Under the pieces are notes generated by a model, which saw nothing but the letters and a program-made list of their open reading frames with translations, made no database searches and had not been told where the DNA came from. DNA of 64,000 bases from a virus: positions 32,001 to 96,000 of IMG/VR virus record IMGVR_UViG_3300032073_000007. The stretch is one strand, 5' to 3'. Position numbers and translations under genes: made by a program. Each line of letters starts with the position of its first letter. Position 1 is the stretch's first letter. This document shows positions 2 to 60,500 of the stretch, piece by piece.

Positions 2-772
2 ATGAGTGATAAAAAAATTTACGGGCCTGATGTTTACAAGCGAAACGAGCATGGATTGCTTGGGAATGCAGACTACGAATTTAATGAAGATGGTTCCGTT
101 AACTGGCGAGCCATGATTAAGGAGGAATTCCTCTATCCTAATAAGGATTGGTTTGCCTCAAGAAAAAAAGACGTTCCAAGTTCTGTGGAGGGTCTCTCTG
201 ATAAGCAGCTTTTAATCATGCTAGGAGGCATTAAGGAGTTGGCTCGACTCAGAGGATTTGAGAGTGTTTCATTCAGAACTGATCACATTAGTGATAATTA
301 TGTTGTAGCTAATTGTGAAATTGCTTGGTCTCCTAATTACGAAAGCAACAATCAAGGTGTTGTTTACCAAGATGTCGCAAATGCGACACTGCAAAATACA
401 GACGCTTTTTGTGCTAAATTTCTAGAAACAATTGCTTGTAACCGAGCTTTTGTTCGTTGTGTTCGTAACTATCTGAATATCCACATTGTAGGAGCAGATG
501 AGATTGATAAGTCAAAAGGAGCCAATAATTCAAATACTGTGGAATATGATGCTTCTAGCGACTCTGCCATGCTCCCATTAACGCCCGCAGGGACGCTTCA
601 GAAGGCTTTGTCTGAAGAATTGGGAGTGAAGACCTTTGAAGATTTCAAAGCTCTTCTCAGGACGTTCTGGAAGCAAGAGAAATACAGGAATGAGGAAGCC
701 GCAAATTGGGAGTCTTATGGAGATATTCCACCTAAAGATTGCAGAAAACTCATACTAATCTGCAAATCATAA
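2..772 (+). CDS. Conserved phage protein, possibly a Rad52/Sak-like ssDNA-annealing protein
   Basis: 256-aa ORF; LGGIKELA ... LETIACNRAFVRCVRNYLNIHIVGADEI resembles the helix motif of Rad52-like annealing proteins (pattern recall only). Confidence 0.4.
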   Translation: MSDKKIYGPDVYKRNEHGLLGNADYEFNEDGSVNWRAMIKEEFLYPNKDWFASRKKDVPSSVEGLSDKQLLIMLGGIKELARLRGFESVSFRTDHISDNYVVANCEIAWSPNYESNNQGVVYQDVANATLQNTDAFCAKFLETIACNRAFVRCVRNYLNIHIVGADEIDKSKGANNSNTVEYDASSDSAMLPLTPAGTLQKALSEELGVKTFEDFKALLRTFWKQEKYRNEEAANWESYGDIPPKDCRKLILICKS

Positions 773-27643: not shown

Positions 27644-29539
27644 TCAAATCGCAAAGGGAATAAATGTTCCTTCTGGTTTCTGCTCTAAAGATGCATTCTC
27701 AGCATCAAAGAATACTTTTGCAAACCAATTCCCTAGAACTAAAGAAGAATAAGAGTCTTTTCTAGCTCTATTCGGGCCTTTCTGTCTTCTTAAATTTTGA
27801 GGTAAGTTAAATGATTGAGAGCCTTGGGGGTTAGCAATAACCTCAATGTTAGCGCATTCCGACTTTGTAAGTTCAACCACATACTTTTGGTGGTCTATGA
27901 AATCAATCATCATAGCTCCCTTAGAAGCCTTGGGGGATTTTATGTCCCAGTTTAATTTATCTATAGGCAAATTCTTTTTTCTTTGCTCATCAAAGTGAGA
28001 GTCGATTGCTCTAGAAGCAAATAAAATTCTTTTATGGTCTATCGCTGCTTGCAACATCTCATTGGCATTTCTAATCCAGTTTGATGTAGGTTTTCTTAAG
28101 ATGCAGTAATTCCTTTCTCTTAAGTTATATTGATTTTTAAAACTTGTTATATCTGTATTCCAGTTCTCTGGCTTCTCTAAATCAACATCAATCACACCTA
28201 TGTTTATATTCTCGTTTTTAAACAAAGCACTTTCGTTACAAGAATTTATAAACTGAACTCCTCCATTATAGTCACCACATATACCTACAATATTAAAATG
28301 TTTCAGCAAGTATAGCATATATTCCATATGCTGTTTTAAAGAAACCCCTGCTATGGCATAACCATGAACTAAACAAACTTTTTGTGCTTCTCTGTCTATC
28401 TTGAAGACATGCATAGCAAAATGGTCAGCACTTGTGTTCCCAGCCCAGTTTGGGTCAAAAGATAATAAGTATTCATGACTGGGGTTACCAACTACTTCGA
28501 CAGCGGGTAATTCTCCGTCTGGTATCGTGCAAGCGGCCATCTTTGATAATCTGTAATATCCATCACTCTCATCTATGAATTGTGCGCCAAACTCTCTTTT
28601 AAACTGCATTTCACTCATGGTGGCTTTAGCTTGTTTAAGCAGATTCTGATCGTATAGCATTGATGGGGCGCAGTCGTAACTAAGCTGCATTATTAGCCTA
28701 TAAGCATCATCTTTAAGGGTATCCTCTTCCTCATCTTCTTGCCCATCCCCTTGTCCTTGTATTAACTCTTCATATTTTTTATAGAGTTTATACATATACT
28801 CAAATTTAAATGATGGAGATGAAAGAATAATAAGTTTGTTATTAGGCCATATATATCTATCCTTTTCTCTCATCTCGCCTTTGTCGATTAGACGGGATTC
28901 TAAATTGTATAGTTCCTCCCTCTCGATAGGATTCTCTACCACCCCCAAAAATGGTATAATAACTTCATTAAATATTTTTTCAGGTATCGTTAAGAACTCA
29001 TCCAACACAATCCTATTAAATCGAAATCCACGAAGTCTCTCACCATTAGCTAACGGAAGGGCTATCGCCCTAGCCTTACCTAAAGTCATTGTCCATTGGT
29101 CAGTTCCTTTTGTTATTTTAAATCCACATTCTTTAATTAGACTTGCTTCGGGTTTGCTAATTATATCCTCCATCTTTTGGAAGATTTGTTTAGATTGCCT
29201 AAATGTCCCAGCAATAACCCCTATGTTTGAATTTGGGTTGAGTAGGCACTCCAGTAATACGTAGATCGCAGTAGAGAATGTCTTCGACATACCTCGCGAG
29301 AATACGAACATGGAATAGTCAGAAACCATCATCCCCTTAATAGCCATAGCCTGAAAGGGGAATAACTTAACACCTAAAAATAACTCAGAAGTAAATGCTA
29401 TATTGTTCCGCAAGAACTTATACAGCAAATACTTCGCTTCTTCTTCTTTGATACTGCCATCAATTCCCTTTAGGAACTCGTTGAGTTCCTGAGAGGAATG
29501 CTCAAACCGATATCCTTGTTCTCCCTTTGTCCAAGACAT
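27644..29539 (-). CDS. terL: Terminase large subunit
   Basis: LFPFQ, SRGMSKT (Walker A), LRGFRFNRIVLDE (Walker B), FKREFGAQF, nuclease SFDP ... RKDSYS. Confidence 0.9.
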   Translation of the reverse strand: MSWTKGEQGYRFEHSSQELNEFLKGIDGSIKEEEAKYLLYKFLRNNIAFTSELFLGVKLFPFQAMAIKGMMVSDYSMFVFSRGMSKTFSTAIYVLLECLLNPNSNIGVIAGTFRQSKQIFQKMEDIISKPEASLIKECGFKITKGTDQWTMTLGKARAIALPLANGERLRGFRFNRIVLDEFLTIPEKIFNEVIIPFLGVVENPIEREELYNLESRLIDKGEMREKDRYIWPNNKLIILSSPSFKFEYMYKLYKKYEELIQGQGDGQEDEEEDTLKDDAYRLIMQLSYDCAPSMLYDQNLLKQAKATMSEMQFKREFGAQFIDESDGYYRLSKMAACTIPDGELPAVEVVGNPSHEYLLSFDPNWAGNTSADHFAMHVFKIDREAQKVCLVHGYAIAGVSLKQHMEYMLYLLKHFNIVGICGDYNGGVQFINSCNESALFKNENINIGVIDVDLEKPENWNTDITSFKNQYNLRERNYCILRKPTSNWIRNANEMLQAAIDHKRILFASRAIDSHFDEQRKKNLPIDKLNWDIKSPKASKGAMMIDFIDHQKYVVELTKSECANIEVIANPQGSQSFNLPQNLRRQKGPNRARKDSYSSLVLGNWFAKVFFDAENASLEQKPEGTFIPFAI

Positions 29540-30455: not shown

Positions 30456-31513
30456 AAGATCTCTTTTTTAGATATTCCTAGAATCCGAGCTTTGTAGTCA
30501 TCCATAGACTCAAGTCGGTCAGCTTCTTCTTCGATTAGTTTGTTTTGCATTTCTGCCATCATAATCATCCTATCACGCTCCTCTTTCTCTTGAAATGCCT
30601 CCACTAGCGCAGCAATGCTACCGTTTTGCTCTCCTCTTGCCTTTAAACGCGCCTGACGGCTTCCGTTGAGGTCTTTGGTCAAAGATTCGATTCTTTTCTC
30701 ACATTGATTTAGCTCGTCGCTGGTGGCCTTTATAAGCTCAGTAAGACGCAAGGTTATATCTCGCTCATTTTCTGTGTCATTGAGCATATTGTTCAATCTG
30801 TCGATTCTTTGCTGAATATGCTTCTGACGAACATAGTTCGTGCAAACAGTAATATACAAGTTTAGCTCATCATTTGTTAAATCGGGCTTGTCCCACACCG
30901 TCCGAACAAACTCACTCTCAAATAAGTCTCTATCTGCTATTGTTGAGTATTGATTAATGAAATGAACGAAACGAGGACTCTTCAGGTAGAAGAGAAGCCT
31001 TTCGCACATTTTCTTTTGTTTTGTTTGTATTGATATTTCGTCAAATGTCTGACCAGCCCAATCGTTAACCTTCTTAATGGCCCTAGATAGCGATTTAGGA
31101 GGAGTCCACTTGTCACTAGTGATCATATCATTGTCATCGACAATCTCTGGCCTGTAACTACGGAGAAACTCCATAACCATCCTATGCTGCTGACTAAGTG
31201 GCTGTATCTCTCTATCCCGAAAAGCTAATCTAGTAGCCTCTAAAGCATTCATACCTCTCTCGATGTTATCACTCATCAAGAATTCTCTTTGTTCAGTTGT
31301 TAAATCTATTTCTTCAACTCTTTGTGGTGTGGTGGTATTAAATTCTAAATTATTATTAATTAAAAATGCTCTGACAGCCCGACCCTCCTTAGAACGACCA
31401 TCCAAACTATCGTTTTCAAACACTATTTGTGTGATATGCCTCAAATCTGGATTTTTAACGAACTCTTCTTGTATTTGAGTCTTTTGTTTCTCTGTTAATG
31501 CTAAATTGTTCAT
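30452..31513 (-). CDS. Hypothetical protein, possible terminase small subunit
   Basis: 353 aa with C-terminal coiled coil, upstream of terL. Confidence 0.4.
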   Translation of the reverse strand: MNNLALTEKQKTQIQEEFVKNPDLRHITQIVFENDSLDGRSKEGRAVRAFLINNNLEFNTTTPQRVEEIDLTTEQREFLMSDNIERGMNALEATRLAFRDREIQPLSQQHRMVMEFLRSYRPEIVDDNDMITSDKWTPPKSLSRAIKKVNDWAGQTFDEISIQTKQKKMCERLLFYLKSPRFVHFINQYSTIADRDLFESEFVRTVWDKPDLTNDELNLYITVCTNYVRQKHIQQRIDRLNNMLNDTENERDITLRLTELIKATSDELNQCEKRIESLTKDLNGSRQARLKARGEQNGSIAALVEAFQEKEERDRMIMMAEMQNKLIEEEADRLESMDDYKARILGISKKEIL

Positions 31514-32187
31514 AAAATGTCATTGTTCTTTATAATCTTAAGAGCAATTAAATAAAATTTCTTTTTTAAATTTGCCATCTGTTTGTATCTCGGTTTTTTC
31601 CGCTTGGCAGAGTCGGCTTTGAACCCAAATTTCTTCGCAACATCATTTTCTTCAATGTTCTCGACGTAAAGCATGTAATAAATCTTTTTATGCTTCTCGC
31701 TTAACTGATCCATTACAAGTTTATGCAATTTCTCAGCCGAACCATCATAATCAACAAAATCTTTTATTGTCGCGGTTCCTGTCGAAACACCTTCTTCCAA
31801 AGCTAATGGAAGCTTTATGTTATACGCTCTTTCTTTTTTCTTTTTCCATTTAGCAAAATCAGGGCAAGATTCATCTTGCTCTTGGCTTTTTGTAAATTCA
31901 CAAGAGTTTGCCCCCATATTATGAGGGCAGCGCAAACATGGCTTTGCAAAACTTGAATAATTATTACGAATCAGGTTTTTAATCTGATTTGATATAATCA
32001 TCGAAGCCCAAGGCTTGAATGGGCGAGACTGATCCCAAAGATGCCACTTATTATGTATATGTATTCGGATTATTTGACAAACATCATCATAATCCATCCA
32101 AGCTAAAGCGCTTAGTTGCCATTTTGGTCTATATTTTTTAAGAAGCTCTTCTAAATAATCTCGCTGACTATCAAAATCATTATTCAT
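31510..32187 (-). CDS. Phage RNA polymerase sigma factor (sigma70-family-like)
   Basis: Region 2 DDVCQ...WDQSRPFKPWASMIISNQIKNLIR; region 4 LSEKHKKIYYMLYVE...DVAKKFG. Confidence 0.75.
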   Translation of the reverse strand: MNNDFDSQRDYLEELLKKYRPKWQLSALAWMDYDDVCQIIRIHIHNKWHLWDQSRPFKPWASMIISNQIKNLIRNNYSSFAKPCLRCPHNMGANSCEFTKSQEQDESCPDFAKWKKKKERAYNIKLPLALEEGVSTGTATIKDFVDYDGSAEKLHKLVMDQLSEKHKKIYYMLYVENIEENDVAKKFGFKADSAKRKKPRYKQMANLKKKFYLIALKIIKNNDIL

Positions 32188-32553: not shown

Positions 32554-33231
32554 TTAATTTAATTGGTTTTTTTCAATTTTATCTACTAAATAGCTGATAA
32601 TCTTATCTCTCATAACATCATCCTTCGTAAAATGTAGATGATGTATCCCATGACTTCTACTTTCTTCATCATCGAAGACCTTACAAAATTGTTGAAAGCC
32701 AGTAGACCTAATATCACTCTGCATAGTATCTCCACATATAAATAATGTAGAGTTCGCACTTATCCTAGTAATGACAGTTGTAAGTTCTTTTATCGTCATG
32801 TTTTGCGCTTCGTCAACGATAACGACCTTATTCCTCCATGTAGACCCACGAATAAAGTTAATCGGGGCCGCATCTATCGCATTCCTTTGTTGTAATTGTT
32901 GTTTTTCATGTGGACTTAAAAGTTCATCCAGTTTATCATCTAGGGGTCCAATATATGGATTGAATTTATCATCCATACTTCCTTTCAGAAAACCCATCCC
33001 CTTATCCGCACTCTCTGCCAAACTCCTCAAATAAAGAATATTAAGCAGATTGTCCTGATTGTGTTTGTATATAGCCGTATACACTGACAAAAATGTCTTT
33101 GCCGTCCCTGCTGGCCCACTTATAAATACTACCCTCGTATTGGGGTTCCTCATGATCTTATGAAATTGACTTTGTTTTTCTGTAAGTTCTATATGCCCCA
33201 ACAAAAAAGAGTTTTTATATTTATATGACAT
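32554..33231 (-). CDS. phoH: PhoH-family ATPase
   Basis: GPAGTAKT, GFLKGS, FIRGSTW, IVDEAQN, GDTMQSD, DDVMR. Confidence 0.92.
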   Translation of the reverse strand: MSYKYKNSFLLGHIELTEKQSQFHKIMRNPNTRVVFISGPAGTAKTFLSVYTAIYKHNQDNLLNILYLRSLAESADKGMGFLKGSMDDKFNPYIGPLDDKLDELLSPHEKQQLQQRNAIDAAPINFIRGSTWRNKVVIVDEAQNMTIKELTTVITRISANSTLFICGDTMQSDIRSTGFQQFCKVFDDEESRSHGIHHLHFTKDDVMRDKIISYLVDKIEKNQLN

Positions 33232-34597: not shown

Positions 34598-34939
34598 ATG
34601 ACCGTTAAAAAACCCGCATTCATCTATTCCGTAATCGTTAAAGCCCTCAAGGATTGTCGCTTGAGGGAAGACCACGCTCAAGTAGAAGAGCCATCCATTG
34701 ATAACTATACTGGAGCTGTAATCATTGACATGTGCAGGGCAGCAGTTAATCATAACCGCGACCTCCGTGACTTTCGCACAGTGTGCGAGGAAACACTGAA
34801 GGTAATCCTCCGCTTGCGTAGGGATTCAATACCAATGATCGGCCCGACTTGTCACAATGATCTCGTCAAGGAAGGTCTTATGGTTGAGGGCGAAGATCTG
34901 GCCACGAATAACATGAATGAAAAACTCTCGGTAGGGTAA
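34598..34939 (+). CDS. Early hypothetical protein
   Basis: TTGCAA-16-TATACT-6-ATG. Confidence 0.7.
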   Translation: MTVKKPAFIYSVIVKALKDCRLREDHAQVEEPSIDNYTGAVIIDMCRAAVNHNRDLRDFRTVCEETLKVILRLRRDSIPMIGPTCHNDLVKEGLMVEGEDLATNNMNEKLSVG

Positions 34940-34955
34940 CCTGCCACTGTCATGG

Positions 34956-34990
34956 AGCCTCGTCACCCCAACGGGTGGCGAGGTTTTTTC
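34956..34990 (+). terminator. Rho-independent terminator
   Basis: AGCCTCGTCACCC-CAAC-GGGTGGCGAGGTT followed by a T tract. Confidence 0.8.
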
Positions 34991-35020
34991 TTGTAAAAAA
35001 ACAAATAAAAAGCTTGACAG

Positions 35021-35099
35021 CGTAACTCACTGATACTCAACGAGTTACGCGCGGCGGCCCGCCCCCGCCCCGTAACTCCTTGATAACCAACGACTTACG
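35021..35099. repeat. 79-bp double-palindrome element, copy 1 (orientation A)
   Basis: 29-bp palindrome + 21-bp GC-rich spacer + 29-bp palindrome. Confidence 0.95.
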
Positions 35100-35247
35100 A
35101 AGATTCCTCATGTATCATACTTTCAGATCAACGCAAGCATTTAAATGAAAAAAATTAACCTGTCTGACAACTTAAAAAAAAATCATTTTAAAGGTAAAAA
35201 AAGCTTTTAATTCATACGGATCTGTGCTATACTTCTCCCAGCAAGAA

Positions 35248-35361
35248 AGCTCTATAGTTTAAAAAGTAAAACATTCTCCGCGACCGCTTCAACAATAAGT
35301 CACCGCAACCCCAATGGTTCGGGCGAGAAAGATAAAGGTGCAAGTCCTTTTAGAGCGACCA
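35248..35361 (+). ncRNA. tRNA-like RNA with a 39-nt insert in the anticodon arm (possibly Pro-CGG derived)
   Basis: GCTCTA/TAGAGC acceptor stem + ACCA; D stem GTTT/AAAC; TTCTC/GAGAA anticodon stem; T arm AAAGG-TGCAAGT-CCTTT; TATACT at 35228. Confidence 0.7.
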
Positions 35362-35423
35362 ATTTCCCTAAAAAAACAAAATAAAAGTTTGCACTATCTC
35401 AAAAACTAAAGTAGATTCTACTC

Positions 35424-35612
35424 ATGACAGAAAAAGAACAAATCGAACACCTCAAAGATCAAATCTTCAAACTTCAAATGGTAATGAAGGGAGTTTCAGG
35501 CATCGCAGCAGCAAGGTCTTCATTCAAAGAGACTTCTGCCTTTAACAAGGAGACCTTCAAAAGAATCGAGAGCCAACTTGATGAAGCAGTCAAGGAAGTT
35601 CAGTTAGGGTAG
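35424..35612 (+). CDS. Small coiled-coil early protein; last codon and stop overlap the mini-tmRNA
   Basis: TTGCAC-17-TAGATT-6-ATG. Confidence 0.7.
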   Translation: MTEKEQIEHLKDQIFKLQMVMKGVSGIAAARSSFKETSAFNKETFKRIESQLDEAVKEVQLG

Positions 35613-35671
35613 CAAGGGTTTCGACGGGACGCAAGTCGCGGATGGGGGTTCGACTCCCCCGCTATCCACCA
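35607..35671 (+). ncRNA. Minimal tmRNA-like RNA (tRNA-like domain only, no tag ORF)
   Basis: Acceptor GGGTAGC/GCTATCC with G3.U70 and ACCA; GGTTTCGAC D-loop without a D stem; short P2 capped by GCAA; T arm GGGGG-TTCGACT-CCCCC. Confidence 0.8.
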
Positions 35672-35739
35672 AAAAAAAATCAAAATAAATACAAAAAAAG
35701 CTTTTTACTCACTCAAATCTCTGTTATAATTCTCTCGTT

Positions 35740-36075
35740 ATGAAAAACACCACTACCACTACCACCACCCGCTTCGATCACTCTCTCTATGGACTCAGTG
35801 ATCAAGACCTCAAGAAAAAGCTCACCAATCGCGTTGTTATCTACTGGAACAGCGAAGAATCCTCCGTCAAGAATGATGGTGTCCGTCAGTTCGTGGTCAA
35901 GTCAATCGACTACACTGGTCACGCCAAGGGTTCGGGTCGCCGTTACATCCAAGGGGAGTTCCAAGACCTCGACGATGGAGGCAAGACCAAGTTCCGCACT
36001 CTCCACGTTGCGGGAATCGAAAAGGTGAAGGGTCGCGTGGCGACCGCTTACAAGCTAGCCAAATCAGTTTTTTAA
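35740..36075 (+). CDS. Stand-alone WYL/SH3-like domain protein (paralogue of 37202-37480)
   Basis: LT..V.Y...SSV..D..R.F.V.S ... G..Y ... DGGK.K.R.L.V..I pattern shared with the paralogue. Confidence 0.55.
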   Translation: MKNTTTTTTTRFDHSLYGLSDQDLKKKLTNRVVIYWNSEESSVKNDGVRQFVVKSIDYTGHAKGSGRRYIQGEFQDLDDGGKTKFRTLHVAGIEKVKGRVATAYKLAKSVF

Positions 36076-36089
36076 GTGCATAGCGTGTT

Positions 36090-36126
36090 GCCCGTCAGTC
36101 TCTTCGGAGGCTGGCGGGTTTTTTTT
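36090..36126 (+). terminator. Rho-independent terminator
   Basis: GCCCGTCAGTCTC-TTCG-GAGGCTGGCGGGT followed by a T tract. Confidence 0.85.
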
Positions 36127-36155
36127 GCATTAAATTGTTTTTTGGCCTTGACAGC

Positions 36156-36234
36156 CGTAACTCCTTCATACTCAGTGAGTTACGCGCTGCGGCCAGCCCG
36201 CCCTGCGTAACTCCTTGATACTCAACGAGTTACG
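36156..36234. repeat. 79-bp double-palindrome element, copy 2 (orientation A)
   Basis: Same 29+21+29 architecture. Confidence 0.95.
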
Positions 36235-36375
36235 TCACCTTACAAAATATGCAGTGTGATGCCCTGTCAAGTAAATATTTAGCTATTTGTTATTTGTTGT
36301 TCTAACCTGTAACCTAAGACAAAAAAAAGATAAAAAAACATTTGCACTCCTGCGATCTTCTGGTAGGTTACTCGC

Positions 36376-37012: not shown

Positions 37013-37201
37013 ACTGAAAAAAAATGAATTTAAATGCAGAAATCGCTTGCATATCTGGTGATATTTGGTAAACTATTTGCATCGAAGCTATTTAACCTAT
37101 GCTTCTCTAACCTACAACAAAAACAGACCATGCTCAGAAAAAAATTAAAATTCAGCAAAAAACCTCTTGCACTCACTCAAAATCCTGTTATACTTATCCC
37201 A

Positions 37202-37480
37202 ATGCAAACAAACACCATTACTGCCAACCTCACCCTTCCTACTAACCCTGTGCAACTTGCTTCTGCTCTTACTGGCAAGACAGTTCACTATACAACTAAA
37301 AAAGATTCTTCTGTTACCTTCGACAGAGAAAGGGTCTTCAAGGTTGAATCCGTAGAGGACGTTTCAATCTCTCAATCAACGGGAGATCAATATGTAAATG
37401 TCAAGATCATTGACCCTCAAGATGGTGGTAAGGAGAAATACAGAAACCTCATTGTAGATAGAATTTCGACTGTTGTGTAG
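37202..37480 (+). CDS. Stand-alone WYL/SH3-like domain protein
   Basis: TTGCAC-16-TATACT-7-ATG; C-terminal KYRNLIVDRISTV resembles the WYL R.F..DRI motif. Confidence 0.55.
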   Translation: MQTNTITANLTLPTNPVQLASALTGKTVHYTTKKDSSVTFDRERVFKVESVEDVSISQSTGDQYVNVKIIDPQDGGKEKYRNLIVDRISTVV

Positions 37481-38015: not shown

Positions 38016-38088
<73 letters not shown>

Positions 38089-38167
38089 CCTAACTCCTTA
38101 ATACTCAGGGACTTACGCGCTGCGGGCGGCCCCCGCCCCGTAAGTCGTTGATACTCAACGACTTACG
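38089..38167. repeat. 79-bp double-palindrome element, copy 4 (orientation A)
   Basis: Begins immediately after the tRNA discriminator base. Confidence 0.95.
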
Positions 38168-39516: not shown

Positions 39517-40203
39517 ATGGCAAAACTACTTAACGATGGAAATTCCAAAACAAGCAAGGGAGAAAAGTATGGTTGGAAAACCTATGGAATACACCTTGCC
39601 CCATATAACCTATCAGGAAAAAATGTTTGTGCTTCTGCTTCTGCTGGTTGCGCTGCTGCTTGTCTCAATACTGCTGGTCGTGGATCAATGAATTCAGTTC
39701 AAAATGCCCGAGTTAAAAAAACACAGAGGTTTCATGAGGATCGGGATGGATTCCTATCGCAGTTATTCAAAGAAATTAAAAGCTCGATTAAAAGCGCTAC
39801 GAGAAAAGAACTAAAGAGTTGCTTCCGTTTAAATCTTACAAGTGACATCCTTTGGGAGCGATTTGTTGTTGGACATTTTCCAGATACTCAATTTTACGAC
39901 TATACTAAACACCTAAATAGATTCGTTCGTTTCTTGGAGGGCAAACTACCAAGCAATTATCATCTCACTTTTTCAAGGAAAGAGAATACTCCTGACACTT
40001 TGGTAAAGAGCTTGTGTGCAAGTGGTGGCAATGTTTCAGTTGTGTTTAGGAAAAAGTTACCTAAAACGTGGCTTGGAATAGAAGTAATTGATGGCGACGA
40101 TTCCGATCTGCGTTTTGAAGATGGCAATGGCAAGATTGTCGGTCTAGTAGCAAAAGGCAAAGGAAAGAAAGACGAAACAGGTTTTGTTGTGGAGCCAGAA
40201 TAA
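39517..40203 (+). CDS. GP88-family phage protein
   Basis: CASASAGCAAACLNTAGRG, FRLNLTSD, FYDYTK, NYHLTFS, DGDDSDLRF, IVGLVAKG. Confidence 0.75.
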   Translation: MAKLLNDGNSKTSKGEKYGWKTYGIHLAPYNLSGKNVCASASAGCAAACLNTAGRGSMNSVQNARVKKTQRFHEDRDGFLSQLFKEIKSSIKSATRKELKSCFRLNLTSDILWERFVVGHFPDTQFYDYTKHLNRFVRFLEGKLPSNYHLTFSRKENTPDTLVKSLCASGGNVSVVFRKKLPKTWLGIEVIDGDDSDLRFEDGNGKIVGLVAKGKGKKDETGFVVEPE

Positions 40204-43324: not shown

Positions 43325-43400
43325 TGGTAGCGGGAGTGGGATTCGAACCCACACTTTAGCGATTTTAAGTCGCTTGCCTCTGCCGTTGGGCTACCCCGCC
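43325..43400 (-). tRNA. tRNA-Leu(TAA) with a short variable loop
   Basis: GGCGGGGTAGCCCAACGGCAGAGGCAAGCGACTTAAAATCGCTAAAGTGTGGGTTCGAATCCCACTCCCGCTACCA. Confidence 0.9.
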
Positions 43401-51506: not shown

Positions 51507-54500
51507 TTAGCCTGAGTATTCTATATCGTCAATTTCTATCTCAAGTTTTCCTATGTCCTTGCGTTCTGCATAAACAACATAGAAATAATTAAGAGGAGTT
51601 TCTGTATTTGAACCTATAGTTACTTCTCCATCATCCGCGATTGATTCAACATAAAGATCTTGATTTGGACCTATGGCTGTAATATCTACTGTCATCGAAT
51701 CAATATGGACTAGACCAATCCAGTAATCAGGCATCTCAAGTATATTTGAGGTGCTTTTCCCTCGGAAATATACACCATTTTCTGGACCCTCGATACACGC
51801 ATGGAGTAACTGCTTACCCTCTTTTGTCGGGTGTTTTATTAAGAAGCTTTTTGATGAGCCTACAATAGAACCGCCAACTTGAAGTGCATAAGAAGCGCTT
51901 GTTACTCCTATGCCAACGTTACCTTGAATAATAGCTCCGTTAGATGGGGCAGTGTTCCCAACATAGCTAGCTCCAACAGCTATGCCTCCAGATACGTCTA
52001 GTTTGTTAGCTGGATTATTTGTTCCTATACCAACATTACCGTCTTGCTCTATAGAAAATCTTTCTCCACCAGTGGCACTATTGATATGTTCATAAATCCT
52101 AAAGGAACCCCTGCCACTACCACTTCTATTAACTCCTATACTCCATCCATAGTTAGTAACTGTGCTTGAAGCGAAGGAGATACCTTGCCATCCAGTATTA
52201 TCAACTGTATTAGTAGATTCTAGTCGTATTTGACTAGAAGCCCATTGTGCAGCCACACCCATCGGTGCTATTGTGTTAATGCTACCTCCGACGGTCAGCT
52301 TTTGAGATGGACTTGCTGTCCCTATACCAACTTTATTATTTATAACCGTCCCACCTGAATTAACACCAAGTAAGATATCATAACCTGTTCCTCCATCATT
52401 ACGTATTCTTAAATCATTACCAGCGTGGTTGAATTTCCACAAGTTACTATTATCACTGCGACCAAGCTCTAATGATTCGTCGTTACCATTTGTTGATTCA
52501 AATTTAGCAGTTCCTTGGTATACATGAAGTTCCTGTTCTGGACTCGTTGTTCCTATACCAACATTACCTGATAAAGTTGCCCCACCTGTTATAGAAACGC
52601 CTGTGCTTGTTGTCTCAAACCTTTTAGTATTATTATAGTAAAGTTCTACAGCATCGTTCTCACTTGCATTTATAATTAATTCGTCTGTAGAAGCATTATA
52701 AACTCTAAACTGATTTGTGGATAAACGTAATCCACCAGACCCTGTATCATTTATATAACTATTAGAGCCATCGTGGTAGATTTGGAGATCGTTACCATGA
52801 CCGAAAGTTATTCTTCCGAAACTAGTGCTAGACGAATCAAGTAGTTGAATATTACCACCAACATAAATACCTGTAGAAGTTGTCTCTAATTTTGCAGAAT
52901 TATTATGGTATAAGTTTACCGCACCGCCTTGGTGAGCAATCAACATAGAAGAACTATCTGCCCCCAGTAACCTTAAGCTGTTGCTTTGTAAATTGAAATT
53001 ACCTGTCCCAGTATCTTGAATATAACTATGGTTACCATCATGGAATATCTGGAGATCCAAGCCAGTTCCAAAGATGGCCTTCCCGTTATCTACAGCAGTT
53101 AAAGCAGTAGAGGAAGTTGTTATTACGCTTCCAGCGGTTAAATTATTAGCTTGTGCAATATTTACGTTACCTGCAAAGGTTGCATTAGTTGATGTATCTA
53201 AAGTTAAAGCAGTAGTATTACCTAGTATAAATCTTAATTCTCGAAGGTTATTTGAAGCGTTTACATAAGTTGATTGAATATAACTATAAGCAGAATCATT
53301 TGTGCCTATTTGTATTGCTGTTCCACCCGATCCATTATGTATTGTTAAACCAGTAGACGCTACATTGCCAGAGGTTGTAGGCGCACCATTGGAATTAATT
53401 GATAATTTACTAAACGGGCTAGTTGTTCCTATACCAACGTTACCTCCGTTAAACCAGCTATTTCCTGCGGTATCAATCCTTACGTCTTCTGTTCCTGCAT
53501 CAAATAACGATAGCAAACCTTTATCAAGATTACTTCCTGTTCCTCTTGGGATTATTCTTGCGACACTATAATCCGCTGACTTCAAGTATATCTCCGCGCC
53601 ATCACCTTTAATGTCTAATGTTGCTGTCGGACTCGTTGTTCCTATACCAACATTGCCTGTGTTTGTTATACTTAATCGGGCATTAGTTCCTAAAGTAGTA
53701 TTGTCTGCTATTTCAAAGGTGCTGCCATTAACACCTAACGCAAAAGTATTGGATGAAGCGGCTAATTTAATTTGAGGGCGTGAATCTCTTGAGCTTATTT
53801 CTACTGACCCACTACCGCCAACGTCACGGGTAAATTTAGCTAATGGCCCACCAACACCTCCTCCAGTTACCAAAAGACCTGTCCCAGCAGTAGCGTTATC
53901 GTCGATGTGAAATTTAGTTGTCGGACTCGCTATTCCTATACCAACATAGCCGTCAGATTGCTTCATAGAGATAAGACCTGTCAGTGATCCACCTGTATTA
54001 TATCCTTGAATTTCAAAACCTGTTGTATCGTTGTTTTGTATTTGGAAAGCCCCGAAAGTGTTATTGTAGATAGCTCCCGTGCTTGTATTTCTGTTAAGTC
54101 CTATTCTACCACCGTTGGCGTTTTGTATTTTTACATTACCGACTCTAACGCTACCATTTACTTCAAGCTTTTCATTAGGAGTAATTGTTCCTATACCAAC
54201 GTTGCCTGTAGGTTGAAAAATTGTGTCGGCTACTGAATTTATCCTTAAATCAATGCCATCTGTGGTTATAGTGCCTACAGTTGATTCACTCCCGACTGAA
54301 CCATATTTAAAGTGCATGAAGCCAGCACCAGATGTATTAATTGTAATATCACCGCCAGTTACATCTAACCTAGAGTCAGGAGTCGCTGTTCCGATACCAA
54401 CGTTGCCGTTTGTTTTGAACCTAGCAATTTCAGATGATTCGATTTCAAAAGCTAAGTCACTATTGTTAATGATTTCCCAATCAGATCCACCTCTTCTCAA

Positions 54501-57500
54501 ATGAAGTCTTGCTTCGTGGGTTCCAGCATCTTCATGAACTGCAATCGTTGTATTAGCGCCATTACCGTAAACTTCTAGCTTCCCAAAAGTCGGACTAGTT
54601 GTTCCGATACCGACCTTGCCAGCGTTAAACCAACTGTCTCCGTGAGCGCTTAACCTAATATCCTCGTTATTAGAAGCGTCTAAGATAGATATCTTTCCTG
54701 AACCTACCCCATCTAAAGAATGATTAATTTTGACAACGCCATTTGAGTTTGAAAAATGAGCTATATCTACACTTGTAGTTGCAGTCGCAGCCACTTCTAA
54801 CTTAGTGCTAGGACTAGTCGTTCCTATACCAACATTGCCGTCACCTTTGAGCCGCATGACTTCAGCGCCAGTGGTATTATTTCCATTAGAAACACCTAGA
54901 GCCATGTAGTTGTCTGCTACAGTAGAGAATTCCTTGGTTCTTATGTAAGAGACATAATTGGTTCCATCAAATGTAAATTTGATACCACCTTCACCAGTCC
55001 CTTTATTTAGATTTAGCACATCAGTGCCTCCACCTGATCCCTTGATCTCCAGCTTGTTAGTCGGACCAGTTGTTCCTATACCAACGTTACCCGCCCCTTC
55101 ATTTAGCACTAAAATACCGCCACCACCATTACCACTGTTAATGTAAGATCTAGTTTCGTCTACCCAAATTCTTATAGATCTACCAGCAGAAGCAGATAAA
55201 ACACCTATACCCGCTTCATCAACATTAGTAGCTTGATTAACTTGTAAAGCTCCAAATGCATTAGGATTATTAGAGTTGCCTACTTGAACATCCCCGTCTA
55301 CATGTAAATTTGCGATAGGATTCGTTGTTCCTATGCCAACGTTACCGTTAGTATCAATACGCATTCTTTCATTACCAGCATTTGTAGTGAAAGTCAAAAA
55401 CCCTCCTGTGGAACTACCTCCTCTGTAGAATGTTACAGCAGCGTTCTCTGTGGTATTATAATATAATCCATGTTTAAAAGCGTAAGCGTTACTCCCGTTA
55501 CTTGTGCCGTTGTTATAAGTAGTTAGCCTAAATGCAGTTTCACTACCATTTATTAAGCTCATCCAAGCAGCGCCAGATGTAACAGAAACATCTAACTTAG
55601 CACTTGGACTAGTTGTTCCTATTCCAACACTATTAGTCGTAGTATTACCATTGTCAGTTACTTCTTGGAGAGTTGCGCTTCCAACTTGAGAATCTACATA
55701 ACCTTTTGATGCTGCATCTGTAGAGTCTGTTACAGTGTCTATACCTTGGATACGTCCTGTTCCACCTAATGATATATTCCCACTGTTTACGGTAAGCCCA
55801 GTGCTTGTAATGGAACCCATAGCTGTAGCAGCAGAACCATTCCAGTATTCAAAAATATACCCAGCACCTGTGTTTGTGCTAGTAAACCTATGATGTTGGC
55901 CACTAACGGCTGGAACTATATCTAAATGTCTAGATCCGCTAGCTTCTTCTAAACGCAAAGCCGCTCCTTTTACATGAAGCTCCTGCTGTGGATCTTCTGT
56001 TGCTATACCGACAAAACCAGCATTAAAAGTCATGTGTGGATTAGATCCATCTCCATCTGCGAAAAGGTGTGTTTTTGATGAATCATCATAGAGAGCGAAT
56101 CTGAATCCACCCCCTCCTGTATACTTATAAAAACCTCCAGCGTTAGAGTCTAACCTAATTCTAGTGCCTACCACATGTAGTTGATTCGCTGGATTAGTTG
56201 TTCCTATGCCAACATTGCCAGAAGAGTCGATACGCATACGTTCTGAACCATCATCTAACCAACGTAGTCCCTGATTTGAACCATCAACTTGCATTTCCCA
56301 GTAACCAGAACCATTAGTCGCACGGTAACCAACATAAGCGGAAGTATTGGTGCTCTCTGTTATTACTCTCTCTGTTGTTCTCGCTGATGATATATGTAAT
56401 CTACTTGATGGACCAGTTGTTCCTATGCCAACGTCACCATCGCTTTTAATAAGCATGGTTGTGGTGTTCGCCGAGTTGTGGGAACTACCAAACTTAAAAT
56501 GAGTTTCTGAAAAAGAGTGGATATGAGCTATGTCAGCAGTTGAAGCTTGGAAACCAACATTCCTACTGGCATTAAAATGCATTAACCCGTTATAATGATT
56601 GTTATCTATCTTTTGTGCGGTCCCAGAATTTGTATATAAAAGATCTGCTGAAAAAGTATTACCATTATCAGTTACTTCCTGCAAAGTATCTGCGCTACCA
56701 ACTTGAGCATCGACATACGCTTTGTTTGCTGCGTCTGTAGAATCTGTTACAGTATCTATACCTTGGATACGTCCTGTTCCACCTAATGTTATGTTACCCC
56801 CGTCTACGGTAACAGTGCCTAAAACTTGTAAGGTGTTAGTCAAGCTTCTTTTTATATGGACTAGATCGGTCAGTGTAGAACCAATTCTTCCTCTAAACTC
56901 TAGTCGATCATCGGCTCCATTATAGTTAATATCAAAATTAGTCGTATTAGATACTTCTGAAAATATAATTGTGCCGTTAGGATCAGTGTTCGCTCCAGAA
57001 TTATCGTATAATGTAATAGTCGGGTCCGTCTTAGCGATTGTTAAGTTGCCTGTAAGAGTTCCACCTGCTAGTGGCAAGTAACTTCCAAGACCAGACGTAA
57101 TAGCATTATCAACGTAAGTTTTACTCGTAGCGTCAGTCCCTGATGAAACAGTATCAATACCTTGTATTCTACCTGTCCCACCTAATGTCAAACTACCCCC
57201 AAGAGTTAAATCTCCTGCTTGAGTTAAAGTCATAGCGGTTTGCATACTAGCTCCACTGCCATTGCCGACCCTCCACAGCCATGAACCGTTGTTGTCGGAT
57301 GTATTACTATCCCATTGATCAAATCTAGTAGTCATATTACCACTAGTTTCATCTTGTCTATGCACTAAATGTGCATTCCTGTCATCCACATATGCTCCCC
57401 AATATTGATTACTACTTCTACCAATTTTTATTTGAGGTTGAGTCGTTTGGACTTGTGCATTAGTAAATACCTGAAGACCTGCGCTCTCATCTGTATGAAG

Positions 57501-60500
57501 AATATTTAAACGCGCATTACTTGCGTCCCATTCCATGTATTCTCCCGAATCATTACCATAGAATTTGACATCATATCCCGTATCATCTACGCCAACTTGG
57601 ACGGTTCCGTCTACATGTAATTTAGATGCTGGGCCAGTTGTTCCTATTCCAACGTTGCCGCTATCGAACATTAAGGTCAGAAGGTTACTAGAGTCTGTAT
57701 CATTATTAATTACAAATCTGTTACTTCCTTCTAATGCTAATTCTATAGTATCATGTCCACTTCTACCGAATTTCATTCCCGTAGAAGAAGGTTGATATAA
57801 ATGCAGTGGCGCTGTCGGACTCGTTGTTCCTATACCAACTTTGCCAGAAGAGTCAATTCGTAATCTTTCGGAGTTATCTGTAGTAAAAGCTAGAAAATCA
57901 CTTGACTCATTTCCAACTATTCTGACTCTGCCTATGTTTGCGTCTGCTGTTGACCAAGTTATTCTCTGACCGTCATCTAATCTTATGTTGCCACCCGAAA
58001 TATCTAGTTTTTCTTGTGGACTAGTTGCTCCTATACCGACCTTATCTGAAGTTAATATTATATCTCCTGATGCACCAGATTGTAAGTATAAATTTTGGCT
58101 ACTAGAGAAGTAGCTAGATCTAATTTTTTTTGTTGCTATACCTTCATTAGCATCTACCCTAACTTCTCCGTTAACATGGAGTTTTTCTGCTGGGCTATTT
58201 GTTCCTATACCAACGTTACCAGAAGAGTTAATACGTAACCTCTCTGTCGGATTATTTGAGTTAGTTCCATGACCAATAATGAAGTTACCAGATCCATCGT
58301 TGTAAATTCTGCTATCTAAACCTCCAGAAGGAACGACAAACAACATATTAGGAGCTGCCGCAGTTATAGATAATGTGCTATTAGCAACGTTAAGATTATC
58401 ATCAAATTGAGATGTTCCCGCAACCTGCAACTTGGTGGACGGATTAGTTGTTCCTATACCAACGTTATTATTAAGTCTATTTATAACTAAAGCGTCTGAA
58501 CCTAATTGTGTGTTCCTAATGCGGAACATGTCGTTAGTAGCTCCTCCAGTATATTGGTTTTCTAATTCCCAAGTAGTGTATGTCCCTTCTAATCGAAGGT
58601 GTGGACCAGAACTAGCTGACACTCCAGAGATACCGAATTCACCAAAAACGGTATTTGAAGTTAGATATTTAGAAACAAATGGAAGCTCTAACTGTGTCGT
58701 CCACCTGTCTGATAAATAATTTATAGCTGCTACTTTTACTAAATTTGCGTCTGTTGTTATTGAAATCTCAATATCAGTTAAGTAGTTATTCGTCGATATT
58801 GGAAACTTTATTACCTTGTAACCGCTATTGGTAGATACGTCTGTTCCTGTAGAAGAATAATAAACACCACCACTTTTATGCCTTAAACTTATAGCCGTGT
58901 ATGCATGGTTCGTATAATAGAAAGATATATAAACATTGCCTTGCGGGTAGGTGATACCATTAGACGGGACTCCTTGTTGACCAGCTACGTTTACATTTAT
59001 GACATTAGTAGTGTTAGTAGGTAAGTTACCTGCCTGATCAAAGCCCCCATTAAAGAAACTTGGGCTACCTCCAGTCACTGTGAAGCGTAGATCTGCTTTA
59101 TAAAAGACATCAGACAATTCATTTAGCTTAATTCTGCTCTGTCCAAATACCGAAACAACAGAGCTGTATTCTAACGTATCAATGCTAGCAGTGCCAGCTA
59201 CGTGTAATTTAGAAGACGGATTAGTTGTTCCTATACCAACGTTGCCTGCACTATCAATAACGAAATCTGCTGTCTGACCATTGCCATTTACAACCTCTAA
59301 AAGATTAGCAGAGGTGTGGACATTTCTCGCTAGTAATTGTATAGCTGTTACTCCATTTGCGGCGCTAGAAGCTACTTGAGCAGGACCGTTTGTTTTTTGG
59401 AAATGAAGTTGTTGTATTGTAGATCCAAATTGTATTTCAGCAGAGTTACCTCTTACATAACGCGAAGTATCAGTTCCAAATTGAAGTGTTCCGAAAGATG
59501 TGCTACTCGCATCTTCAATTATCCCGATACCTTTAACATGAAGAGTTTGAGATGGATTAGTTGTTCCTATCCCTACTTTACCGCCGTCATCTATAACAAG
59601 TGGCGAACTTGAATAATCTCCACCTATGTTAAATATAGCTTTATTATTAGCATTATCATAATTTATAGCTAAACATTTATTAGTGCTAGCTTCGGAGCCA
59701 ACATAAATAGATGAAACTCCACTAGTTCTATCTTGACCAAAAATTGCTTGGTTTTGGCTGCTTCCTGCAACCGAAAGAGATAGATCTGGACTATCTGTTC
59801 CTATACCGACATTACCATCAGAATCAATCCGCATGGTTTCAGCAGAAATGCCTGTGCCATTAGTAGAAAAAATTAAATCATTATCTGTATTAGATATAAT
59901 AGAACCCCTACCGCCAGCAGGATCTCTAAACAACAAACCTGCATTATAAGAGTTGGAGACTAAGAAATCTATGTTGTTATCTTTTGCTTCGGCAGCGGTG
60001 CTGATAGACAATGCCTCGGCTGGGGCGTTATTACCTATTCCTACATTACCGCCAGCGGCTGGCATCAAAGATATATCAGGGTCACCAGCCCCAGCATTTG
60101 TTACTATTTCAAACCTATTAAATCTTGAGCTTATCCTAGCAATGTTTGCACTAGCTACACTACCATCAACTTCTATGTAATTAGACCCAGCATTTTGGAA
60201 TCGAGCAATACCGCTTCCTAAATGGAATTTAGTTGAAGGACTATCTGTTCCTATACCGACATTACCAGCAGTTTCGTTTAGTAATAAATCGGCAGTTGGG
60301 TCGATGCTTAGATCTCCAGCGTTTGTTGTAATCTTTCTATTGCCAAGACCACCACCAAAAAATGTAAGGTCATCTGCTACAATATCAACACCATGAGCGT
60401 TGTTAGGGTTGGTGAGCGTGAATCCATCCGCTGCATCCATTTCGATTTTGGAGTTAGCTGCCCCTTTAATATCGTTAGTCCCTATATCAATACTGCCTCC

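Follow-up and report, generated by a model that had tools for sequence, protein, structure and literature searches.

Bacteria depend chiefly on trans-translation for ribosome rescue and quality control. A short element on the + strand of a viral contig raises the question of whether a phage can encode a tmRNA stripped of its entire mRNA domain and, if so, what such a molecule would do to its host. The element occupies positions 35607-35671 of the window, by which we mean the whole 64,000-nt stretch analysed (positions 32,001 to 96,000 of IMG/VR record IMGVR_UViG_3300032073_000007). A first-pass annotation, made from the letters alone, had described it as a 65-nt alanine-type tmRNA tRNA-like domain (TLD) lacking the whole mRNA domain, and had offered two roles for it: blocking trans-translation by sequestering SmpB, or adding alanine to stalled chains with no degradation tag. 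Judged by sequence, the element is a real TLD-only mini-tmRNA gene of the type known from Mycobacterium phage DS6A, one of a large family in phages whose members are mostly unannotated.

Sequence, fold and model scores of the 65-nt element

Read from the window, the letters at 35607-35671 agree exactly with those quoted in the first-pass annotation. The parts of the element can be assigned as follows.

35607..35671, + strand: TLD-only mini-tmRNA gene with encoded CCA (Rfam RF00023, models R1 and R2, conservation in contig L011)
35607..35613, + strand: 5' strand of the acceptor stem, GGGUAGC, with G3 at 35609 (7/7 pairs with 35661-35667)
35614..35625, + strand: D-loop analogue AAGGGUUUC plus GAC, the latter being the start of P2 and forming sheared G.A/A.G pairs with GGA
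35626..35639, + strand: P2 hairpin GGGAC-GCAA-GUCGC, standing in for the pseudoknots and tag ORF (RNAfold, element parsing)
35640..35643, + strand: GGA on the 3' side of the P2 base, near-invariant in 49 parsed elements, and a linker U
35644..35660, + strand: T arm GGGGG-UUCGACU-CCCCC (Rfam alignment, covariation)
35661..35671, + strand: 3' strand of the acceptor stem, GCUAUCC, with U70 at 35665, then A73 at 35668 and CCA at 35669-35671 (sequence, unbiased scan)

The acceptor helix GGGUAGC/GCUAUCC comprises seven pairs including G3.U70 and is followed by A73 and the encoded CCA, a description on which direct reading and the Rfam alignment agree with the first-pass annotation. The D stem is absent, as had also been claimed, and the GG..UUCGAC motif of the D-loop analogue is invariant across alignments A2 and A3. 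P2 (CGGGAC/GUCGCG) contains a single G.G mismatch and is closed by a GCAA loop; just 14 nt, forming this GCAA-capped stem, separate GAC from GGA. The fold described at first pass, with its short P2, GNRA loop and canonical T arm, is both the minimum free energy and the centroid structure in RNAfold (-27.4 kcal/mol). Its z-score against shuffles is only -1.5, and stability by itself is therefore not the evidence for the RNA.

Rfam and ARAGORN, proposed as checks at first pass, gave a divided answer. In E-value mode the Rfam tmRNA model RF00023 aligned to the element end to end (model 1-374), skipping 312 internal positions, and placed the D-loop analogue on the tmRNA consensus GGaUUCGAC with high posterior probability. 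At an E value of 2.9e-16 (501 nt searched) the match is well outside what chance would give; its 43.9 bits fall just short of the gathering score of 47, and a default Rfam run therefore makes no call at 35607-35671. ARAGORN is silent at these positions too; over the whole window, ARAGORN and thresholded Rfam report only a tRNA-Met (38016-38090) and a tRNA-Leu (43325-43400). Among related elements, those of L011 (48.0) and L004 (49.8) exceed the 47 bits set for bacterial tmRNA, while those of L001 (45.7), DS6A (43.2) and L003, whose copy is identical to that of the window (43.9), do not. The window RNA scores 78.2 bits with model R1, and 62.8 bits (E 3.4e-12) with covariance model R2, built from 48 elements with both the window's clade and DS6A left out; R2 gives DS6A 50.5 bits, and 41.7 and 23.5 bits to the true tRNAs of the window. 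The mitochondrial tmRNA model RF02544 had no match at E <= 10 in the L003, L011, L001, L004 and DS6A records. Since ARAGORN and thresholded Rfam miss mini-tmRNAs, such genes are under-counted in phage genomes.

Compared with bacterial one-piece ssrA (RF00023), the window RNA retains G3.U70 and A73, GGxUUCGAC, the GAC/GGA base of P2, a GGGUUCGAxUCCC-type T arm and CCA. What it lacks, in its 65 nt, is PK1-PK4 and the tag reading frame with its resume codon and stop, which correspond to the deleted internal positions (312 of 374).

The phage family and its known relatives

The window is phage DNA of ~37% GC, with the following hallmark genes:

27644-29539, - strand: terminase large subunit
31510-32187, - strand: sigma-70 region-2 protein
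32554-33231, - strand: PhoH

It further encodes a clamp loader, an ERCC4-type nuclease, an HNH protein, a pyrimidine-dimer glycosylase, SprT-like, MazG, DUF1599, DUF932 and GP88 proteins, glycosyltransferases and one 3273-aa ORF. The terminase, PhoH, clamp loader, sigma factor, GP88 and tRNAs mark the element as phage-encoded, and the L003 and L011 copies likewise lie on IMG/VR viral contigs. A nucleotide search with the cassette that contains the element found no match in 50,697 phage records. The terminase is 25% identical at best to those of isolates (Bacillus phages), PhoH ~35% identical to its best matches and GP88 45-51% identical to proteins of MedDCM and Pelagibacter phages. Across 17 studies, many metagenomes (seawater, marine, viral) contain the stretch; by CheckV, a relative contig of 21 kb is only 15% complete, which therefore points to a large marine phage. 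The 50 window ORFs scanned yielded no homologue of an integrase, SmpB, ArfA/B, Pth or a release factor.

To what extent is the element shared? A first search pattern joined a TTCGACG D-loop end, a short gap, a T arm and CCACCA, and left the 5' acceptor strand unspecified. It retrieved 11 IMG/VR contigs, nine of which had a perfect 7-bp acceptor helix with G3.U70 at the right spacing; the other two (L005 and L010), in which the 5' acceptor strand is missing, were discarded. A relaxed pattern applied to metagenomes yielded at least 48 unique complete elements, and all scans together locate complete elements at no fewer than 86 phage or metagenome loci in at least 70 distinct contexts. They fall into two size classes, one of 63-70 nt with a simple hairpin, to which the window RNA belongs, and one of 80-84 nt with a bulged P2a/P2b-like hairpin.

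The relaxed pattern and its filter had themselves imposed G3, U70 and A73, and the viral scan was therefore redone with the 3' acceptor strand and the discriminator unconstrained. Under these conditions 35 of 38 loci still had a 7/7 acceptor helix, and all 29 unique elements carried G1:C72, G2:C71, G3.U70 and A73, with CCA encoded in 15. That these positions are fixed while pairs 4-7 vary indicates that the AlaRS identity set of the family is under selection.

Covariation among homologues, another check proposed at first pass, supports the fold. In an alignment of 53 sequences, pairing holds in 84.7% of cells, as against 45-59% with slid partners, and double-sided changes occur in 120 cells against 5-32 in the slid controls; none of 500 shuffles matched the observed values. 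Acceptor pairs 4-7 covary. The T stem is 100% paired, with four pair types at its second pair, and G3.U70 is found in 49 of the 53 rows, which include four ordinary tRNA matches and DS6A. MAFFT puts 5' ends out of register when D-region lengths differ and Infernal displaces a few rows by 1-2 nt; exact counts therefore come from anchor-based parsing.

Within the window's own clade, named for its GGGUAGC acceptor strand, acceptor and T arm are identical among members while the P2 stems differ in sequence and keep their pairing (GGGAC/GUC(G/U)C, GCUU/AAGC, GUAA/UUAC), that is, they covary. A further comparison is with the relative L011, whose neighbouring proteins are ~85-90% identical to those of the window. 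The two RNAs are identical at 64 of 65 positions (98.5%), whereas the flanking 30-60 nt are 42-57% identical, and the sole difference turns the G.G mismatch of P2 into G.U in L011. Homology, covariation and conservation support the first-pass identification; they show a conserved, structured RNA in which all the TLD features are present and the alanine identity set is under selection.

Searches in other collections were less productive. Compared with phages by BLASTN, the 65 nt found partial matches to the 3' half only, none of them a mini-TLD: the match in Pseudomonas phage PA_L9 is an ssrA-like piece limited to the 3' part, its 5' acceptor strand missing, that in Acinetobacter phage phiAbaA1 a different tRNA-like sequence, and that in Erwinia phage Ea9-2 a 57-nt tRNA-like piece without G3.U70. 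Matches of 41 nt in genome contigs, mostly of Nocardioides, resemble ordinary tRNAs, and as none of the 120 loci listed passes the acceptor filter they are uninformative on prophage copies or hosts. When the genes neighbouring the elements were clustered, none of the recurrent ones had a link to ribosome rescue; they encode only GP88-family proteins and small proteins without annotation.

The novelty of the element had been overestimated at first pass. Hudson, Lau and Williams had catalogued 'Mycobacterium phage DS6A (TLD only)' by 2014 (PMC4131195), and ~65-bp plastid tmRNAs without a CDS are known from Mallomonadaceae, together with message-less mitochondrial tmRNAs (PMC11915505). In the literature searched, DS6A is the sole phage example documented (tmRNA Website tmID 11587; Mao et al. 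2009 RNA Biol 6:355). What is new here is a minimal 65-nt form from a marine phage unrelated to DS6A; the type itself was already known.

We located the DS6A element, unannotated in GenBank, at 28478-28560 of NC_023744, between gp33 and gp34. It has a GGGGCCG/CGGCUCC acceptor with G3.U70 and A73, no CCA and a length of 83 nt, which places it in the long class. Both RNAs are phage-encoded and combine a 7-bp acceptor containing G3.U70 with A73, a T arm, a D-loop analogue that ends with GAC, and a P2 hairpin where the mRNA-like domain would be; their RF00023 scores are similar and both are matched by R2. The window RNA shares with the DS6A type a TLD with GG..U(U/C)GAC, loss of the mRNA-like domain and recognition by R2, a model that contains neither of the two. 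DS6A differs in its long bulged P2 (P2a/P2b-like), GGUCGAC D loop, GCGAG/CUCGC T stem and ACUA end with CCA unencoded, whereas the window RNA has a 6-bp P2 with a GCAA loop and encodes CCA. The hosts differ as well, being a high-GC actinobacterium for DS6A and some marine host for the ~37% GC phage of the window.

Two further groups of TLD-only molecules are relevant. The T. thermophilus TLD crystallised with SmpB consisted of 25 nt, UUCG and 34 nt (PMC3929946); the window RNA, with 25 nt, GCAA and 36 nt, has a near-identical, tetraloop-joined design. The engineered fragments are laboratory constructs derived from full-length bacterial tmRNAs, whereas the window RNA is a natural, conserved phage gene. 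This near-identity means that existing assays apply to it directly. Organellar tmRNAs (those of jakobid and oomycete mitochondria, RF02544, Jacob et al. 2004, and of Mallomonadaceae plastids) likewise consist of a TLD with no tag frame but are vertically inherited and presumed to serve the rescue system of their own organelle.

Predicted function and competing readings

Both roles put forward at first pass, a block of trans-translation by SmpB titration and tag-less addition of alanine, are those that the literature supports for such molecules. We consider it probable that the RNA matures as a tRNA does, is charged and bound by host SmpB, and competes with host tmRNA, with a drop in tagging and rescue as the result. 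The gene would be transcribed from the + strand within an early cassette, jointly with the 62-aa ORF upstream of it. It would then be released in tRNA-like fashion, by RNase P cleavage at G1 and 3' trimming of an A/U-rich trailer up to the encoded CCA. Host AlaRS would charge it with alanine through G3.U70, A73 and G1:C72/G2:C71, and host SmpB and EF-Tu would bind it as they do engineered TLD fragments of the same design. Lacking a resume codon, the mini-tmRNA could not complete trans-translation; it would compete with host tmRNA for SmpB and stalled ribosomes, and tagging and rescue would therefore fall.

Several of these steps have precedents. The 5' end of tmRNA is made by RNase P, the RNA is alanylated and EF-Tu-bound, and SmpB binds the TLD, boosts charging and accompanies Ala-TLD into the A site (PMC3985003, PMC3929946). 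The latter source also reports that engineered TLD fragments (e.g., Shimizu & Ueda 2006) bind SmpB and enter ribosomes with it. According to Hudson et al., a molecule similar to the TLD-only RNA of DS6A strongly inhibits tmRNA, perhaps via SmpB titration, for which they cite Mao et al. 2009 (PMC4131195). The 2025 tmRNA database paper likewise has the DS6A form inhibiting endogenous tmRNA in E. coli, per Mao 2009 (PMC11915505). A likely benefit for the phage is that its own proteins, when translated from mRNAs that are truncated or cleaved, avoid being tagged for degradation, or that the host's quality control of translation suffers. To hijack or block trans-translation with an RNA is a compact, protein-free way for a phage to take over host translation.

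The main rival is a productive use of the same partners, which we regard as appreciably less probable. The Ala-charged RNA together with SmpB would donate one or more alanines, and ribosomes would be freed without the ssrA degron, leaving by drop-off or some other release route; the aim would be the rescue of phage translation, a role proposed for message-less mitochondrial tmRNAs. Retention of the AlaRS set in 29 of 29 elements argues that charging is required, while pure SmpB titration would not need it, inhibition having occurred 'whether or not chargeable' (PMC4131195). SmpB and a TLD fragment support template-free poly-Ala synthesis in vitro (PMC3929946), and tmRNAs lacking the tag frame persist in mitochondria alongside SmpB (PMC11915505). 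Against such rescue, a molecule devoid of resume and stop codons has no known way to terminate normally, the window ORFs tested include no ArfA/ArfB, Pth or release-factor-like gene, and the DS6A form, in the accounts cited above, was inhibitory in E. coli.

We think it improbable that the RNA instead titrates or triggers a host factor outside ribosome rescue, for example an SmpB-like or tRNA-binding defence protein, or, in the same low range, that its function is specific to the phage and lies outside translation. SmpB-like OB folds do occur in defence systems, such as CoCoNuTs (PMC10542128), and the mini-tmRNA shares its early cassette with another unusual tRNA-like gene. Every AlaRS, SmpB and T-arm feature of a genuine tmRNA is strictly kept, however, which argues for the canonical partners.

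3' fragments of ssrA are common in phages, where they serve as attachment sites, and a 3'-only piece of this kind occurs in PA_L9. That the element is a non-functional remnant, whether an ssrA copy in decay after an internal deletion or an attP-type relic of integration into a host tmRNA gene, is nevertheless very improbable: both TLD halves are present and perfectly paired, compensatory changes extend across many lineages, the same architecture recurs at the 86 or more loci, and no integrase occurs among the window ORFs tested. The first-pass annotation had itself named decay of a full ssrA gene as an outcome that would overturn it, and the conservation of the element at 98.5% against ~50% in its flanks, with its compensatory changes, speaks for the opposite. 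Least credible of all is a decoding, D-armless tRNA-Ala with the central hairpin as anticodon arm, which would account for the alanine identity elements and normal T arm but not for a GCAA loop of 4 nt (4-6 nt and unrelated in sequence in clade relatives) with neither a 7-nt loop nor an NGC anticodon in register, for the invariant, tmRNA-specific GG..UUCGAC and GGA motifs, for tmRNA as the best Rfam match, or for the failure of ARAGORN to find a tRNA at the site.

The cassette and its upstream junction

Two terminator-like hairpins bracket a + strand cassette made up of the following features.

34954-34987, + strand: terminator-like hairpin closing the preceding unit (intrinsic terminator scan)
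35248-35358, + strand: tRNA-like gene with a 45-nt insert (Rfam tRNA, 41.6 bits)
35389..35417, + strand: candidate promoter TTGCAC-17 nt-TAGATT, recognised by eye only, 6 nt before an ATG (leaderless)
35424..35612, + strand: 62-aa ORF without a family match; the TAG stop at 35610-35612 falls inside the acceptor stem
35607..35671, + strand: the mini-tmRNA
35740-36075, + strand: 111-aa ORF in the same cassette as the mini-tmRNA
36090-36119, + strand: terminator-like hairpin ending the cassette (intrinsic terminator scan)

No terminator was found directly after the mini-tmRNA, where the trailer is A-rich. The TTGCAC-17-TAGATT motif was not called by a consensus promoter scan, and it is a candidate rather than the only possible promoter; contigs from RNA libraries begin further upstream as well. 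These contigs cover 35200-35601 (X15, no differences), 35096-35374 (X17) and 35205-35552 (X16), and a metatranscriptome contig, X20 (35497-35669), spans the junction of the 62-aa ORF and the mini-tmRNA. Being assembled contigs and not reads, they show presence rather than ends, strand or level, with DNA carry-over possible, and they lend weak support to transcription of the cassette. Zero cover at 34900-35095 and 35701-36300 in four RNA-library runs is not evidence of silence, and 31-mers at 35669-35700 represent A-rich noise in oligo-dT libraries.

The overlap of the 62-aa ORF with the acceptor stem recurs in a related form elsewhere. Throughout the GGGUAGC clade, wherever a same-strand upstream ORF is present, it stops at the 5' edge of the RNA; these ORFs belong to four unrelated families. 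Relative to the RNA start, the stop lies at +6 in the window, where UAG occupies RNA positions 4-6, at -1 in L001 and at +1 in seven contexts, in which the G of the stop UA|G is nucleotide 1 of the mini-tmRNA. In L011 the orthologue of the 62-aa ORF, 88.5% identical, stops 4 nt before the RNA (-4). Release of the RNA by RNase P would leave most of the upstream messages non-stop.

This arrangement suggests a tentative proposal, in which the mini-tmRNA and its upstream gene would form a functional unit and the upstream protein would accumulate untagged only after the mini-tmRNA has shut down host ssrA tagging. If true, it would bring an ArfA-like logic to a phage early cassette, expression being licensed by the loss of trans-translation. 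We hold such coupling to be unlikely. Of the three frames, two are closed at this boundary by the conserved UA|GGGUAG, tight packing is usual for phage genes, and the L011 stop lies upstream of the RNase P cut site, all of which count against it. In other clades the distance between ORF stop and RNA ranges from -194 to +15.

Stop codons and a promoter-like motif at the edges of the elements

Within the GGGUAGC clade, the subgroup of TLD-only tmRNA genes named for the 5' strand of its acceptor stem and to which the mini-tmRNA of the window belongs, the stop codons of the upstream ORFs fall between -4 and +6 nt from the first base of the RNA, and the ORFs ending there belong to four unrelated families. 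In seven contexts of this clade the stop reads UA|G, its G being G1 of the RNA. Processing of the RNA by RNase P would deprive the upstream mRNA of its stop codon. The junction and the upstream ORFs at other phage or metagenome loci of the clade are as follows:

Window 35604-35612, ORF/RNA junction
L002:457-672, upstream ORF
L035:1090-1281, upstream ORF
L004:1645-2067, upstream ORF
L105:1433-1894, upstream ORF
L001:12958-13878, upstream ORF
L011:3609-3800, upstream ORF

A conserved GGAACTC-N3-5-TATAAT-like motif lies about 10-20 nt 3' of the RNA in several other phages and is not found in the window. In L001 this motif, probably a phage promoter, also occurs 5' of the upstream ORF.

L001:13943-13970, motif
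L002 near 370-395, minus strand, motif
L020 and L274, motif just 3' of their elements

The surrounding cassette

An intron-like or interrupted tRNA gene lies about 250 nt 5' of the mini-tmRNA and in the same cassette, where the Rfam tRNA model matches with 41.6 bits (cutoff 29) and the anticodon loop is interrupted by a 45-nt insert. Neither ARAGORN nor the Rfam gathering-threshold run over the whole window called this gene, and its unspliced form is present in contigs assembled from RNA libraries.

Window 35248-35358, plus strand, tRNA gene with insert
Window 35740-36075, plus strand, ORF directly after the mini-tmRNA
Window 37034-37480, plus strand, 148-aa ORF 1 kb downstream
Window 39517-40203, plus strand, GP88-family (PF17338) protein about 4 kb downstream of the mini-tmRNA
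L006:2738-3460, minus strand, GP88-family (PF17338) protein directly adjoining a long-class (80-84 nt) element

The ORF directly after the mini-tmRNA and the 148-aa ORF are paralogues (34% identity), the first of which is absent from the close relative L011; therefore, the gene content of the early cassette varies. The GP88-family protein of L006 belongs to a neighbour cluster common to seven loci with seven distinct elements, and the proximity of such genes to the elements may reflect the shared ancestry of marine phages rather than a functional link. Farther along, the window encodes two very large phage proteins, a 3273-aa ORF (51507-61328, minus strand) followed by one of at least 845 aa.

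Unannotated elements in isolate phages

The published TLD-only tmRNA of Mycobacterium phage DS6A, between gp33 and gp34, carries no annotation in RefSeq NC_023744. Two further pieces are likewise unannotated: the Pseudomonas fragment comprises the T arm and CAGCUCCACCA without the 5' strand, while the Erwinia piece is located within the phage's tRNA cluster.

DS6A 28478-28560, TLD-only tmRNA
Pseudomonas phage PA_L9 (L252) 1493-1537, 3'-only ssrA-like fragment
Erwinia phage Ea9-2 (L254) 1473-1529, 57-nt tRNA-like piece

DS6A also encodes an RtcB-type 'tRNA splicing ligase' (gp76).
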